From a virus (taxonomy: Duplodnaviria > Heunggongvirae > Uroviricota > Caudoviricetes): 24,281 nt of DNA. Shown here in pieces: positions 17,841-23,262 of the stretch (positions are counted from its first letter, which is position 1; each line of letters opens with the position of its first letter). Made by a program: the position numbers and the translations under genes. The notes below the pieces were generated by a model. That model was not told the DNA's origin. It saw nothing but the letters and a program-made list of their open reading frames with translations, and made no database searches. The DNA lies in the IMG/VR virus record IMGVR_UViG_2675903394_000002, positions 1 to 24,281 of that record, one strand, 5' to 3'.

Positions 17841-17944
17841 AACAACCTCCGTGGTTAATTTGAATCAAGATTAAAACTATGGTTGTTTTTAGTCAACAAC
17901 CATTTTCGTTTGATGGAATAAAACCTTGGTTGTACATTTGGACT
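17841..17944. promoter_or_regulatory. Immunity-region operator/promoter region (oR, pR, pRM-like); 9-bp inverted repeat ATGGTTGTT-n7-AACAACCAT at 17879-17903 plus further AACAACC/GGTTGTT half-sites
   Basis: Divergent cro-like and cI-like genes flank 104 bp carrying repeated GTTGTT/AACAAC half-sites. Minus-strand TTGACT (-35 for cro) lies inside the palindrome. Plus-strand TTGATG-17 bp-TACATT ends 6 nt before the cI ATG, implying a leaderless cI mRNA. Confidence 0.5.
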
Positions 17945-18634
17945 ATGAAAACAACACTCTCAGAAAGACTTAAAGAAGCCAGATTAGCGCGAGGCCTTAC
18001 ACAAAAGGCGCTTGGGGATTTGGTCGGGGTTAGCCAGGCTGCTATTCAGAAAATCGAAACAGGGAAAGCTAATCAAACAACTAAAATCGTGGAGATCGCG
18101 AACGCTTTGGGTGTGCGCGCAGAATGGTTATCTTCTGGCGTTGGAAATATGTCAGACAGTACAGTGCAACCAATACAATCAACTGTCAGCCATTCCAAAT
18201 ACTTCAAGATTGACGTTCTTGATATAGAAGTCAGTGCTGGGCCGGGAGTCATCAACCGTGAGTTTGTAGAAGTTCTACGCTCGGTTGAGTACTCGTTTGA
18301 CGATGCTCGTCACATGTTCGATGGTAGGAAGGCGGAAAATATCCGCATCATTAACGTGCGTGGTGACAGCATGTCAGGAACGATCGAACCAGGTGATCTG
18401 CTGTTCGTTGATATCACAGTTAAATCTTTCGACGGTGATGGTATCTATGCGTTTCTGTACGACGACACAGCCCATGTAAAGCGCCTGCAAATGATGAAGG
18501 ATAAGCTGCTGGTCATCTCTGATAACAAAAGCTACTCACCGTGGGACCCGATCGAGAAAGACGAGATGAACCGGGTGTTCATCTTCGGTAAGGTTATTGG
18601 GAGCATGCCGCAGACATATAGGAAGCATGGGTAG
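17945..18634 (+). CDS. cI-like prophage repressor (HTH_XRE N-terminal domain plus S24/LexA-like autopeptidase C-terminal domain, about 229 aa)
   Basis: From MKTTLSERLKEARLARGLTQKALGDLVGVSQAAIQKIETGK... with C-terminal INVRGDSMSGTIEPGDLLFVD...AHVKRLQ (Ser/Lys dyad region). The ORF-track start at 17879 lies inside the operator; I chose 17945. Confidence 0.9.
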   Translation: MKTTLSERLKEARLARGLTQKALGDLVGVSQAAIQKIETGKANQTTKIVEIANALGVRAEWLSSGVGNMSDSTVQPIQSTVSHSKYFKIDVLDIEVSAGPGVINREFVEVLRSVEYSFDDARHMFDGRKAENIRIINVRGDSMSGTIEPGDLLFVDITVKSFDGDGIYAFLYDDTAHVKRLQMMKDKLLVISDNKSYSPWDPIEKDEMNRVFIFGKVIGSMPQTYRKHG

Positions 18635-19813: not shown

Positions 19814-20599
19814 ATGAGTACAGCACTCGCAACGCTGGCAGGGAAGCTGGCTGAACGTGTCGGCATGGATTCTGTCGACCCACAGGAACTGATCACCACT
19901 CTTCGCCAGACGGCATTTAAAGGTGATGCCAGCGATGCGCAGTTCATCGCATTGTTGATCGTCGCCAACCAGTACGGCCTTAATCCGTGGACGAAAGAAA
20001 TTTACGCCTTCCCTGATAAGCAGAACGGCATCGTTCCGGTGGTGGGCGTTGATGGCTGGTCCCGCATCATCAATGAAAACCAGCAGTTTGATGGCATGGA
20101 CTTTGAGCAGGACAATGAATCCTGTACATGCCGGATTTACCGCAAGGACCGTAATCATCCGATCTGCGTTACCGAATGGATGGATGAATGCCGCCGCGAA
20201 CCATTCAAAACTCGCGAAGGCAGAGAAATCACGGGGCCGTGGCAGTCGCATCCCAAACGGATGTTACGGCATAAAGCCATGATTCAGTGTGCCCGTCTGG
20301 CCTTCGGATTTGCTGGTATCTATGACAAGGATGAAGCCGAGCGCATTGTCGAAAATACTGCATACACTGCAGAACGTCAGCCAGAACGCGACATCACTCC
20401 GGTTAACGATGAAACCATGCAGGAGATTAACACTCTGCTGATCGCCCTGGATAAAACATGGGATGACGACTTATTGCCGCTCTGTTCCCAGATATTTCGC
20501 CGCGACATTCGCGCATCGTCAGAACTGACACAGGCCGAAGCAGTGAAAGCTCTTGGATTCCTGAAACAGAAAGCCACTGAGCAGAAGGTGGCAGCATGA
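19814..20599 (+). CDS. bet: Bet (Red-beta) single-strand annealing recombinase (261 aa)
   Basis: [66 protein letters not shown]... is colinear with lambda Bet. Confidence 0.95.
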
Positions 20600-21276
20600 C
20601 ACCGGACATTATCCTGCAGCGTACCGGGATCGACGTGAGAGCTGTCGAACAGGGGGATGATGCATGGCACAAATTACGGCTCGGCGTCATCACCGCTTCA
20701 GAAGTTCACAACGTGATAGCAAAGCCCCGCTCAGGAAAGAAGTGGCCTGACATGAAAATGTCCTACTTCCACACCCTGCTGGCTGAGGTTTGCACCGGTG
20801 TGGCTCCGGAAGTTAATGCTAAGGCGCTGGCCTGGGGAAAACAGTACGAGAACGACGCCAGAACCCTGTTTGAATTCACTTCCGGCGTGAATGTTACTGA
20901 ATCCCCGATCATCTATCGCGACGAAAGTATGCGCACCGCCTGCTCTCCCGATGGTTTATGCAGTGACGGCAACGGCCTTGAACTGAAATGCCCGTTTACC
21001 TCCCGGGATTTCATGAAGTTCCGGCTCGGTGGTTTCGAGACCATAAAATCGGCTTACATGGCCCAGGTGCAGTACAGCATGTGGGTGACGCGAAAAGATG
21101 CCTGGTACTTTGCCAACTATGACCCGCGTATGAAGCGTGAAGGCCTGCATTATGTCGTGATTGAGCGGAATGAAAAGTACATGGCGAATTTTGACGAGAT
21201 GGTGCCGGAGTTCATCGAAAAAATGGACGTGGCACTGGCTGAAATTGGTTTTGTATTTGGGGAGCAATGGCGATGA
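20596..21276 (+). CDS. exo: Lambda exonuclease Exo (Red-alpha, 226 aa)
   Basis: [65 protein letters not shown]... is colinear with lambda Exo; start overlaps the bet stop. Confidence 0.95.
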
Positions 21277-21434
21277 AGCATCCTCACGATAATATCCGGG
21301 TAGGCGCGATCACTTTCATCTACTCCGTTACAAAGCGAGGCTGGGTATTTCCCGGCCTTTCTGTTATCAGAAATCCACTGAAAGCACAGCGGCTGGCTGA
21401 GGCGATAAATAATAAACGGGGGCTGTATGACTGA
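21273..21434 (+). CDS. Small hypothetical protein (53 aa, [53 protein letters not shown])
   Basis: Manual translation. The ATG overlaps the exo stop and the stop overlaps the start of the next gene (coupled arrangement). Below the ORF-track cutoff. Confidence 0.4.
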
Positions 21435-21984
21435 TTTCACCGGAAGCAATACTCCTGCCGAACATCGCGACAGCTGGCGCACACCACCAGAGATTTTTGC
21501 TGCGCTTAATGCAGAGTTCGTTTTTCAACTTGATGCTGCCGCCAGCGAAAAAAACCGACTATGTCGGCTTTTTATCTCACAGGAGCAGAACACATTAACC
21601 ACTTCATGGCCTGAAGCAATGGGATATGCCTCTGGTTATGTCTGGTTGAATCCACCATACAGCAATATTTCCCCTTTTGTGAAAAAGGCAGCCACTGAAA
21701 ACAAATTCAGTAGTGTGGGATGTGTAATGTTATTGCCTGCTGACACATCTGTCGGATGGTTTCATGAAGCGATACAAACCGCCAGTGAGGTCAGATTCAT
21801 CACGGCAGGACGACTGGCATTTATTAACCCACTCACTGAGAAACCCGTCAGTGGAAATAATAAAGGCTCGATGCTCATTATCTGGCACCCATACCCCCGT
21901 ACACACTGCCACTTTACGACCGTTGATCGTGGAGAGTTGATGGCGTTCGGCTCAAGGATTCTTGCCCGTCGGGAGGCTGCATGA
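21427..21984 (+). CDS. Phage orphan DNA N6-adenine methyltransferase (Dam-like, 185 aa)
   Basis: Catalytic NPPY motif (VWLNPPYSN) with an upstream SAM-binding-like region; typical size for a phage Dam-family methyltransferase with no adjacent restriction enzyme. Confidence 0.8.
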   Translation: MTDFTGSNTPAEHRDSWRTPPEIFAALNAEFVFQLDAAASEKNRLCRLFISQEQNTLTTSWPEAMGYASGYVWLNPPYSNISPFVKKAATENKFSSVGCVMLLPADTSVGWFHEAIQTASEVRFITAGRLAFINPLTEKPVSGNNKGSMLIIWHPYPRTHCHFTTVDRGELMAFGSRILARREAA

Positions 21985-22064
21985 CAACCACGGAATGCAT
22001 TTTTCTGGCAGCGGGCTTCATATTCTGTGTGCTTATGCTTGCCGATATGGGACTTGTTCAATGA
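21981..22064 (+). CDS. Possible hydrophobic micro-protein (27 aa, MTTTECIFLAAGFIFCVLMLADMGLVQ)
   Basis: Ribosome-binding site GGGAGG upstream of the ATG at 21981; the stop overlaps the next ATG (ATGA). A single predicted TM helix. Confidence 0.3.
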   Translation: MTTTECIFLAAGFIFCVLMLADMGLVQ

Positions 22065-22276
22065 CACCTCAGCAGGAAAACGCCCTTCGCAGCATTGCCC
22101 GTCAGGCTAATTCTGAAATCAAAAAAGCCAGACAGCAGTTTCCGGATAAAAACGTCGATGACATTTGCCGTAGCGTACTTAAGAAGCACCGCGAAACGGT
22201 AACGCTGATGGGATTCACACCGACTCATTTAAGCCTGGCGATCGGCATGTTAAACGGCGTCTTTAAGGAACGGTGA
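22061..22276 (+). CDS. Hypothetical protein (71 aa from MTPQQENALRSIARQANSEIKK...)
   Basis: Internal start of ORF-track entry 21962-22276; translationally coupled to the upstream micro-ORF. Confidence 0.5.
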   Translation: MTPQQENALRSIARQANSEIKKARQQFPDKNVDDICRSVLKKHRETVTLMGFTPTHLSLAIGMLNGVFKER

Positions 22277-22298
22277 ACATGAAAAGCAAAATCATCAG

Positions 22299-22319
22299 GG
22301 AGCTACAGGCTCCTTTTTT
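22299..22319 (+). terminator. Short hairpin (ggagc-tacag-gctcc) followed by TTTTTT; weak terminator or attenuator inside the early-left operon
   Basis: Seen directly; the 5-bp stem is short, so confidence is low. Confidence 0.3.
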
Positions 22320-22374
22320 ATTGTTCGCATTCATCCTCAAGCGTATTAACCAACAATTCAGGGATTAATGGAAG

Positions 22375-22593
22375 ATGGCAGACATCATTGATTCAGCATC
22401 AGAAATCGAAGAATTACAGCGCAATACAGCAATAAAAATGCGTCGTCAGAACTACCAGACTGTATCCGCAACTCATTGTTGTGAGTGTGGCGATCCGATA
22501 GATGAGCGAAGACGCCTGGCTGTTCAGGGTTGTCGGACTTGTGCAAGTTGCCAGGAGGAGATCGAACTTAAGAACAAACAATGGGGACTGTGA
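22375..22593 (+). CDS. TraR/DksA-family C4-type zinc-finger protein (72 aa)
   Basis: CxxC-n17-CxxC motif (CCECGDPIDERRRLAVQGCRTCASC) in a small acidic protein, typical of phage and plasmid TraR/DksA-like proteins. Confidence 0.8.
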   Translation: MADIIDSASEIEELQRNTAIKMRRQNYQTVSATHCCECGDPIDERRRLAVQGCRTCASCQEEIELKNKQWGL

Positions 22594-22640: not shown

Positions 22641-22919
22641 ATGTTCAGAATCATTTTTCCTAACACCTGGTACGTCGACCACCACGGCACTCCCTGCAAA
22701 ATCCTGCGTTCTACCCACAACAAAGTTCACTACATCCGAAAAGGCAGAACATGTATCGCCAGCATGTTCCGCTTTAATCATGACTTTGAACCTGTGAATA
22801 AAGCTGATGCAGATCGGATAGCAGAAGAGATCGAAACGGCAGAACACATTAAGAAGTTACGTGACATGCGTTCAAAAAGCAGAGGTAACCATGGAATCAT
22901 ACAGCCTCACACTCGATGA
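22641..22919 (+). CDS. Hypothetical protein (92 aa)
   Basis: ORF-track entry upstream of xis; no family recognised. Confidence 0.4.
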   Translation: MFRIIFPNTWYVDHHGTPCKILRSTHNKVHYIRKGRTCIASMFRFNHDFEPVNKADADRIAEEIETAEHIKKLRDMRSKSRGNHGIIQPHTR

Positions 22920-23262
22920 GGCCTGTCAGTTTCTTAAGATATCCAGACCAACCGCCACCAACTGGATACGAACAGGCCGCCTACAGGCAACACGTAAAGA
23001 TCCAACCAAGCCAAAATCTCCTTACCTCACAACACGGCAAGCCTGCATTGCGGCGCTTCAGTCTCCGCTGCATACTGTCCAGGTGAGCGCGGGTGATGGC
23101 ATAACAGAGGAAAGAAAATGTCACTCTTCCGCAGAAATGAAATATGGTATGCCTCGTATTCGCTCCCGGGCGGGAAACGAATTAAGGAATCTCTTGGCAC
23201 AAAGGACAAGCGGCAAGCTCAGGAGTTGCACGACAAGCGAAAAGCAGAACTCTGGCGAGTAG
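22891..23262 (+). CDS. xis: Excisionase-like DNA-binding protein (HTH; about 124 aa if it runs to the stop at 23262)
   Basis: [31 protein letters not shown] is an excisionase/AlpA-type HTH; it lies immediately upstream of int and overlaps it by about 145 nt. Confidence 0.5.

Follow-up and report, generated by a model that had tools for sequence, protein, structure and literature searches.

What do the small genes between exo and the integrase region of this virus do, and is the shortest of them a gene at all? In the window, i.e. the whole stretch of 24,281 nucleotides (nt) that was analysed (IMG/VR record IMGVR_UViG_2675903394_000002), exo is followed by four tightly packed open reading frames (ORFs) of 53, 185, 27 and 71 amino acids (aa). 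The second codes for a Dam-type methyltransferase and the third for a hydrophobic peptide. The genes discussed are on the plus strand and coordinates are counted from the window start. These genes lie in the exo-xis ("bin") part of the pL (leftward early) operon, in a DLP12/lambda-like prophage located at tRNA-Arg (argU). We propose that this is an exo-xis block carrying a Dam cassette, that the 27-aa ORF is translated, passes ribosomes on to the next gene and in addition codes for a peptide with a function of its own, and that Dam methylates the phage's own DNA during lytic growth, most likely at GATC. For this joint reading we estimate a probability of about 0.75.

Two genomes carry virtually the same DNA with the same gene calls and with intD and tRNA-Arg: phage PhiR30_1 (99.8% identity) and the chromosome of E. 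coli S10 (100%), where the identical DNA ends with intD adjoining tRNA-Arg. The exo-xis region of the pL operon is well studied, but functionally obscure (PMC8614690, PMC4195576, PMC6213356). The version known from lambda and Shiga toxin (Stx) phages through the Wegrzyn and Donaldson laboratories (orf60a-orf63-orf61-t2-orf73-ea22) agrees with the window in operon position and in its stop/start overlaps. Moreover, orf60a, the 27-aa ORF, orf61, the t1 and t2 hairpins and orf73 are common to both, with 95-100% nucleotide identity. An earlier note, made from the letters of this DNA, had the packing of the chain right, but its 53-aa "micro-ORF" and its 71-aa protein had not been recognised as the known lambda genes orf60a and orf61. 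The differences are that the window has a Dam-family methyltransferase where lambda and Stx phages have orf63 (DUF1382), that the last residues of Orf60a are altered as well, and that orf61 is intact in the window whereas in reference lambda it is frameshifted by an extra A in an A-run.

Dam replaces lambda orf63 ORF-for-ORF, the exchange beginning precisely at the start codon and ending at the stop codon. Both mosaic junctions (Table 1) were placed by alignment with ev243, VT2-Sakai and lambda. The only side effect of the swap is a shortened and changed C-terminus of Orf60a, which ends in …NNKRGLYD in the window versus …NNKRGAVCTKHLLLS in lambda. Among the 187 phage records that matched the query, a single one covers it completely, while all others match in two pieces which omit the methyltransferase. 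Of 5426 complete E. coli genomes, 244 have the Dam arrangement, with annotation. Dam homologues with 65-84% identity are common in prophages of Klebsiella, Enterobacter and Citrobacter, in the same recombination-to-integrase neighbourhood. Dam and the coupling architecture are ordinary and already annotated. What the earlier note missed, and the alignments show, is that Dam is a cassette in the orf63 slot and that the 27-aa ORF is part of the conserved lambda backbone rather than of a Dam module.

As judged from its occurrence, the 27-aa ORF is lambda backbone and nothing special to the window prophage. The identical peptide is encoded by lambda (NC_001416, complement 30925-31008), by 933W-type Stx phages, and by ev243 and VT2-Sakai; the ORF was found in 176 phage records and, together with orf61, in 3137 of the 5426 complete E. 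coli genomes (about 58%), in which the 84-nt segment has about 4400 copies. RefSeq/PGAP annotation leaves an 80-nt "gap" at this position, while some GenBank records and UniProt (A0A0A2SGE8) list the ORF as hypothetical. Neither the peptide sequence nor the UniProt accession was found in the literature searched, and the peptide showed no similarity to families in Pfam, PHROGs, NCBIfam and PADLOC. A group of 428-aa proteins which had been clustered with the peptide proved to be unrelated, the grouping being a clustering artefact.

The earlier note had credited the 27-aa ORF with a good ribosome-binding site, and this could be confirmed. Its Shine-Dalgarno (SD) sequence has a predicted anti-SD pairing of -10.3 kcal/mol, which is the strongest in the chain and the best of 12 starts tested; for comparison, -8 kcal/mol is reached by 1.2% of background positions. 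The start codon of orf61 itself has -3.9 kcal/mol, and an in-frame ATG further upstream (21995), from which a longer version of orf61 is often annotated, has -2.6 kcal/mol. In addition, the right mosaic junction lies exactly on the start codon of the mini-ORF, as for a gene boundary.

Sequence variation was analysed in 112 loci (12 haplotypes, 15 variants). The frame of the 27-aa ORF has 9 synonymous and 6 non-synonymous changes, for an expected synonymous fraction of 0.24 (p=0.0027). The two other sense frames have 3 and 6 (the frame of the orf61 extension, p=0.38) and 3 and 11 (the third frame, p=0.59). For orf61, which served as positive control, the numbers are 20 and 13 (p not computed). 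The mini-ORF is intact in 111 of the 112 loci and codes for the same peptide in 100 of them, while the same extension sequence is found in 63; the common haplotypes differ by up to 4 nucleotides and still specify one peptide. It seems, from this pattern of substitutions, that the peptide sequence is under purifying selection, and we consider it likely that it has a function of its own. The ORF is probably translated. At the level of RNA, there was no Rfam match at E<=1 in this stretch, and with z=+0.37 the predicted fold of 21960-22090 does not stand out.

The stop-on-start packing of successive genes, as the earlier note had described it, was read in the sequence at every position named. There is ATGA at 21273, 21981 and 22061, and ATGACTGA at 21427. 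The TGA of exo (21274-21276) overlaps the ATG of orf60a at 21273; orf60a in turn ends with its TGA at 21432-21434, 8 nt into dam, which starts with the ATG at 21427. The end of dam at 21984 overlaps the ATG of the 27-aa ORF (21981), the end of which at 22064 overlaps the ATG of orf61 (22061). The chain extends further in the 5′ direction than first noted, with an ATGA overlap of bet and exo at 20596-20599, and on the other side the orf61 stop codon overlaps GTG 22273 of a doubtful 31-aa ORF. Overlaps of this kind are genuine, but they are usual in lambdoid early operons and nothing out of the ordinary.

Translational coupling by ATGA is an established mechanism, and so is the supply of ribosomes by a short ORF to a following gene whose ribosome-binding site is weak. 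The 27-aa ORF resembles such systems in having ATGA at both ends and a strong SD sequence, followed by a gene (orf61) with a weak one. It differs in that coupling is here read from the sequence only, and in that the conservation of the peptide goes beyond what pure coupling would need. In the mechanism that we propose, loss of the repressor or infection would lead to one N-antiterminated pL mRNA, on which ribosomes would pass from gene to gene by termination and reinitiation. The 27-aa ORF would be translated by means of its strong SD sequence and by coupling to the upstream stop codon, and would then hand ribosomes over to orf61 at the ATGA. From this arrangement, translation of orf61 is probably coupled to that of the 27-aa ORF. 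In other phages, genes of the Orf61 family are almost always arranged stop-on-start with whatever gene precedes them, and dependence on such coupling seems to be general among them.

The peptide had been suggested to be a single transmembrane helix and a small membrane protein. A gene for a small hydrophobic protein is indeed credible, but its membrane character is only borderline. The hydrophobic core CIFLAAGFIFCVLMLA has 16 residues, flanked by E5 and D22. Summed over the best 19-residue segment, the Hessa scale gives +0.30 kcal/mol, where a bilayer-spanning segment of about 19 residues would be expected at 0 or below; the Kyte-Doolittle mean is 2.33. By hydropathy, the peptide has rank 3 among 184 short ORFs of the window. 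The peptide has no Lys or Arg, so that the flanking basic residues of the positive-inside rule are absent, and its net charge is about -2. Hydrophobic proteins below 50 aa are known from bacteria and phages, among them the small membrane proteins and the type I toxin peptides of E. coli, and annotation usually misses them. The 27-aa ORF is similar to them in size, in its one hydrophobic stretch, in being overlooked by pipelines, and in its location in an operon of small regulatory genes; it differs in being translationally embedded between two genes and in lacking basic residues. As to further features of a type I toxin, there was no promoter-like site of its own on the plus strand between 20500 and 23200, no antisense RNA was detected, and Rfam gave no match at the above cut-off. 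A single promoter-like match nearby on the minus strand is at chance level. In our reading, the peptide would have some function as a small hydrophobic protein, possibly in association with a membrane.

The 27-aa ORF overlaps several annotated versions of orf61. The 71-aa protein of the window is 97-100% identical to Orf61 of Stx phages and is encoded ahead of t2 and orf73. For Orf61, a three-helix homeodomain-like fold has been modelled (PMC8614690). Homologues with 26-47% identity from phages of Klebsiella, Yersinia, Erwinia, Vibrio and Enterobacter all start at the equivalent position (MTP/MSP…ENALR), which places the extension outside the Orf61 family. In lambda, the annotated orf61 (NC_001416, 30839-31024, minus strand; L005, 3340-3525) starts upstream in another frame and overlaps the 27-aa ORF. 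Here, lambda has A7 where Stx phages and the window have A6 (GAAATCAAAAAAAGCC), and this leads to a frameshift of the true orf61 after 22 codons. HK630 and O276 carry the same frameshift. It has been reported that lambda Orf61 looks truncated and unstructured (PMC8614690), which agrees with the frameshift. Very probably, neither the lambda annotation nor the 93-aa version in Stx phages is correct, and both mask the conserved 27-codon ORF.

The alignment of Orf61 homologues consists mainly of frameshifted variants of one gene. A scan of viral contigs returned only copies with 100% identical Orf61 and thus little further diversity, and a scan with one genome per species returned mostly lambda contamination, the only informative variant being that of Escherichia sp. 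E1V33 (L009). Lambda DNA with the lambda-specific orf61 frameshift occurs in assemblies of Shewanella, Bradyrhizobium, Pseudomonas, Paenibacillus, Kitasatospora, Oceanobacillus and others (L010-L023 and other loci). In these unrelated assemblies, it is almost certainly laboratory lambda contamination. Many copies of Orf61 are named "cell division protein ZapA" by NCBI. This name is unsupported, as the 71-aa protein has no Pfam match at E<=0.01 and no NCBIfam match at E<=0.1.

The methyltransferase belongs to the Dam family, as had been proposed. It matches PF05869 with 190.5 bits (cut-off 28.1) over profile positions 1-168 of 169, and the equivalog model TIGR01712 with 165.6 bits (cut-off 97.05). 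The catalytic motif IV, NPPY (N75-P76-P77-Y78), is invariant in an alignment of 35 homologues with 66-84% identity. An AlphaFold2 (AF2) model (pLDDT 82.4, pTM 0.81) has the Rossmann-like fold of methyltransferases that depend on S-adenosylmethionine. Its best fold matches in the PDB are the cap-specific adenosine-N6 methyltransferase 6irx (E=1e-4, TM-score 0.60), TrmM, MmeI and E. coli Dam, while a sequence search of the PDB gave nothing meaningful, so that there is no close solved relative. The absence of a partner nuclease, which had also been claimed, was corroborated: a cognate endonuclease adjoining Dam was not found, no nuclease or defence model matches orf60a, the 27-aa ORF or orf61, and PADLOC matches Dam best with its "orphan methyltransferase" models. 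The remaining genes of the window have ordinary lambdoid functions.

With respect to the target, the nearest phage enzyme to which we could tie a specificity is the nin-region Dam of Stx phages, with 47% identity. M.EcoVT2Dam of the VT2-Sa prophage is listed with the target GATC (PMC6602927), and we assume that this is the nin-region enzyme. Based on such relatives, which are at most 47% identical, the target is most likely GATC. M.EcoVT2Dam is an example of the phage orphan methyltransferases of PF05869/TIGR01712, and the window Dam has in common with them the NPPY motif, a length of about 170-200 aa, the location on a phage and the absence of a nuclease. It differs from the Stx enzyme in location, which is the exo-xis part of pL rather than the nin region. 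T1 Dam and HP1 Dam are further phage orphan N6-adenine methyltransferases. M.EcoGVI, with target ATGCAT, was considered as a possible Dam-family relative of other specificity, but this lead was dropped because YhdJ is the enzyme behind ATGCAT methylation in E. coli and Salmonella.

Because dam lies in the repressor-controlled pL operon without a promoter-like site of its own, it is expected to be silent in the lysogen and to be expressed as a delayed-early gene in lytic growth. Dam would then methylate replicating phage DNA early in lytic growth, probably at GATC, and its role would be self-protection or complete methylation rather than restriction-modification or regulation in the lysogen. 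A modulation of gene expression, which the earlier note had also considered, is unsupported in our analysis. The comparison of methylomes between lysogen and cured strain is poorly suited here, since pL should be repressed in the lysogen and since a GATC target would also be masked by the host Dam.

The position that dam has taken is used by other genes as well. Ahead of orf61-like genes, two Klebsiella phages have MT-A70 and Dcm methylases, Yersinia phages have a D12-class methylase, and Klebsiella and Enterobacter prophages have a PF05869 Dam, either alone or with one or two HNH homing-endonuclease genes. In Escherichia sp. E1V33 (L009, 371-1438), a gene for a 355-aa DndB-like (DGQHR) protein occupies the slot of orf63 and Dam. 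The 3′ end of this gene stands in place of the first ~20 nt of the 27-aa ORF and gives rise to a new ATGA, by which an extension in frame with orf61 is coupled. An ATGA fusion of the orf61-like gene to the preceding gene occurs in L028, L030, L123 and L125. This suggests that the slot ahead of orf61-like genes is a recurrent, early-expressed landing site for DNA-modification cargo. DNA-modification genes directly 5′ of orf61-like genes were seen in Klebsiella and Enterobacter phages and prophages (L028, L030, L123, L124, L125); the orf61-like gene of L030 (2001-2222) is unannotated. Yersinia phage vB_YenM_210.17 (L029, 1902-1997) has an unannotated hydrophobic ORF of 31 aa, MKRKISDGAWFWIYLIGYTVAATLYIVSNAG, which is coupled by ATGA to the D12-class methylase gene; 3 nt separate its end from the start of the orf61-like gene. 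Five Yersinia phages have this ORF in identical form. In position it corresponds to the 27-aa ORF, with no detectable homology.

Several observations weigh against our reading. The low diversity of the 112 loci makes the test for synonymous excess only moderately strong. According to the summary given in PMC8614690, the exo-xis ORFs added by ribosome profiling of lambda have 7 and 31 aa; a 27-aa ORF is not among them. The core is short for a membrane span, in a peptide devoid of basic residues. The Klebsiella and Enterobacter homologues of orf61 occur without a mini-ORF, so that the peptide is dispensable for genes of this family, and the E1V33 locus has lost the start of the 27-aa ORF, its extended orf61 being coupled to the upstream gene instead. 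For Dam, both target and role are deduced from the distant relatives named above. Some of these points would be expected if the 27-aa ORF were translated only to relay ribosomes to orf61, the peptide being functionless and degraded. The strongest SD sequence of the chain is followed by a gene with a weak one, Orf61-family genes are ATGA-coupled to any upstream gene, and in E1V33 an in-frame extension takes the place of the relay. However, a pure relay should tolerate amino acid changes, yet haplotypes up to 4 nt apart preserve the peptide, and the Yersinia ORF, though non-homologous, hints that hydrophobic character matters in this position. We consider a mere relay somewhat unlikely. That the mini-ORF is no gene at all, its frame being open by chance while the real Orf61 has 93 aa from ATG 21995 (MHFSGSGLHILCAYACRYGTCS followed by MTPQQ…), appears highly doubtful. 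The 93-aa form is annotated in VT2-Sakai (H0081), in phi24B (vb_24B_7c) and in many members of PHROG 303, it is found in the protein database on 155 contigs, and in lambda orf61 has been drawn even further upstream. The PHROG 303 profile has 101 positions, of which the 71-aa protein matches 23-93, and in E1V33 the upstream stop overlaps this very ATG (ATGA) behind a GGAGG site with -9.5 kcal/mol. In the window and in lambda-type phages, however, the ATG has essentially no SD sequence. The 22 codons of the extension evolve without detectable constraint, with six amino acid changes in E1V33; homologues in five other phage groups lack them, and PGAP calls the 71-aa form. Hardly any credence can be given to the idea that an antisense ORF or an RNA element accounts for the conservation of the 84-nt stretch. 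It is true that a similar excess of synonymous changes (8, versus 7 non-synonymous; p=0.005) is seen in the antisense frame which shares third codon positions with the mini-ORF, another point that counts against us, and that the antisense strand of the stretch offers ORFs of 35-101 aa. But that frame has a stop codon within the 84 nt, the antisense ORFs cross the mosaic junction, beyond which Dam-type and orf63-type phages differ completely, the long antisense ORF is unconstrained (5 synonymous, 10 non-synonymous), and the known pL transcript is the sense strand. The reading as an RNA element was dropped because of the missing Rfam match and the ordinary fold. A translated mini-ORF that acts both as relay and through its peptide remains our preferred interpretation.

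For Dam, the alternative is that it is not a plain GATC self-protection enzyme but part of a restriction-modification or defence system, an epigenetic regulator of the lysogen, or an enzyme with another target motif. The sequence does not reveal its specificity, the closest relative for which we found one is only 47% identical, and the varied cargo of the slot includes a DndB-like gene. GATC is rarer than expected in the window, with 56 sites compared to 90.6 ± 7.8 in dinucleotide-preserving shuffles, all 100 of which had at least 56. On the other hand, the flanking genes (orf60a on one side, the 27-aa ORF and orf61 on the other) include no nuclease or defence gene, PADLOC classifies Dam as an orphan, TIGR01712 is an equivalog model with its cut-off exceeded, and from the pL operon expression in a repressed lysogen is not expected. 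Taken as a whole, this alternative seems quite improbable to us, and we retain an orphan Dam that would act on GATC in lytic growth.

Table 1 Features of the exo-xis region in the window. Positions refer to the 24,281-nt window.
Feature	Position	Strand	Evidence or remark
bet (RecT-like annealase)	19814..20599	+	ORF list; Bet in near-identical PhiR30_1 and E. coli S10 records
exo (lambda exonuclease, YqaJ family)	20596..21276	+	PF09588 E=4.7e-30; phrog_149
orf60a homologue (DUF1317), 53 aa	21273..21434	+	PF07026 E=5e-32; same start in PGAP
hairpin inside orf60a, predicted terminator t1 of lambda and phi24B	21337..21359	+	sequence listed as t1 in PMC4195576
left mosaic junction	21420..21429		homology through GGGG(A)GCTGTATG, including the start codon common to orf63 and dam; 1-nt indel
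orphan phage-type N6-adenine methyltransferase (Dam), 185 aa	21427..21984	+	PF05869, TIGR01712, PADLOC, AF2 fold
Shine-Dalgarno sequence GGGAGG of the 27-aa ORF, inside the dam 3′ end	21971..21976	+	4 nt before ATG; -10.3 kcal/mol
right mosaic junction	21979..21984		homology resumes at G(C/T)ATGA, the orf63/dam stop over the start of the 27-aa ORF
27-aa hydrophobic ORF, MTTTECIFLAAGFIFCVLMLADMGLVQ	21981..22064	+	identical peptide in lambda; not annotated in RefSeq
orf61 homologue (PHROG 303), 71 aa	22061..22276	+	phrog_303 E=4.7e-36; weak SD sequence of its own
doubtful 31-aa ORF (GTG 22273; 29 aa from ATG 22279), through the t2 hairpin	22273..22368	+	ORF list
intrinsic-terminator-like hairpin with T run, predicted t2 of lambda and phi24B; end of the coupled block	22297..22325	+	PMC4195576 Table 4
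orf73 homologue (TraR/DksA-type zinc finger), 72 aa, first gene past t2	22375..22593	+	PF01258; TIGR02419

The other genes of the window fit the prophage assignment. They include terminase genes (Nu1/gpA), lysis genes, rusA, genes for a serine recombinase, a PEBP and AraC-type proteins, emrE, and further P, O, a cI-like repressor gene (17879-18634) and gam. Gam is followed by bet, exo, the chain, the TraR/DksA zinc finger gene, a DUF4222 gene, a xis-like helix-turn-helix (HTH) gene and the integrase gene. Of the lambda homologue of the zinc finger protein, Orf73, it has been described that it reprograms host RNA polymerase (PMC9239242). For the xis-like HTH ORF upstream of int (22861-23262, plus strand; L004, 3992-4057), PGAP calls only a truncated pseudogene in the identical E. 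coli S10 sequence, and the excisionase of the window prophage may be defective or mis-called.

The assignment of orf60a is based on PF07026 (109.9 bits, cut-off 22.3), on its place immediately behind exo, the end of which its start overlaps, and on its alignment with lambda orf60a. The start at 21273 is preferred, with the SD sequence GGGGAG at a distance of 7 nt, which is only 1 nt for ATG 21267. Opposite exo and orf60a there is a 110-aa antisense ORF (21150-21482, minus strand), the counterpart of which is annotated as vb_24B_10 in phi24B. It is probably a shadow ORF. The doubtful 31-aa ORF which runs through t2 also occurs in lambda and is sometimes annotated as hypothetical; its alternative start, ATG 22279, has an SD pairing of -8.0 kcal/mol. 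As a guess, it may match the 31-aa "orf2313" from lambda ribosome profiling.

Knowledge of phage methylases or of operon architecture is not changed by these results. What may change is the view of a much-studied region of lambda. It is possible, though we would put it slightly below an even chance, that lambda and most lambdoid E. coli prophages encode an overlooked hydrophobic protein of 27 residues between orf63 and orf61, and that some phenotypes ascribed to orf61 are caused by it. If the published lambda orf61 deletion spans the annotated coordinates, the whole mini-ORF is removed as well. In phi24B, vb_24B_7c (93 aa) covers 70 of the 84 nt of the mini-ORF, and these are lost when the 93-aa annotation is deleted. 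If the proposal is true, part of the effects of orf61 on the lysis-lysogeny decision and on host survival could belong to the peptide, or to its driving of orf61 translation. Over-expression of orf61 has been found to yield insoluble aggregates (PMC6213356); in our own view, this would fit an over-extended, non-native ORF. Genetic and over-expression studies of "orf61" from lambda and phi24B used these boundaries, and the phenotypes as well as the insoluble protein may need to be reinterpreted. The product of the 27-aa ORF can reasonably be regarded as a candidate small phage protein of uncharacterised kind, and the ORF itself as a candidate for correcting how lambda and the Stx phages are annotated.

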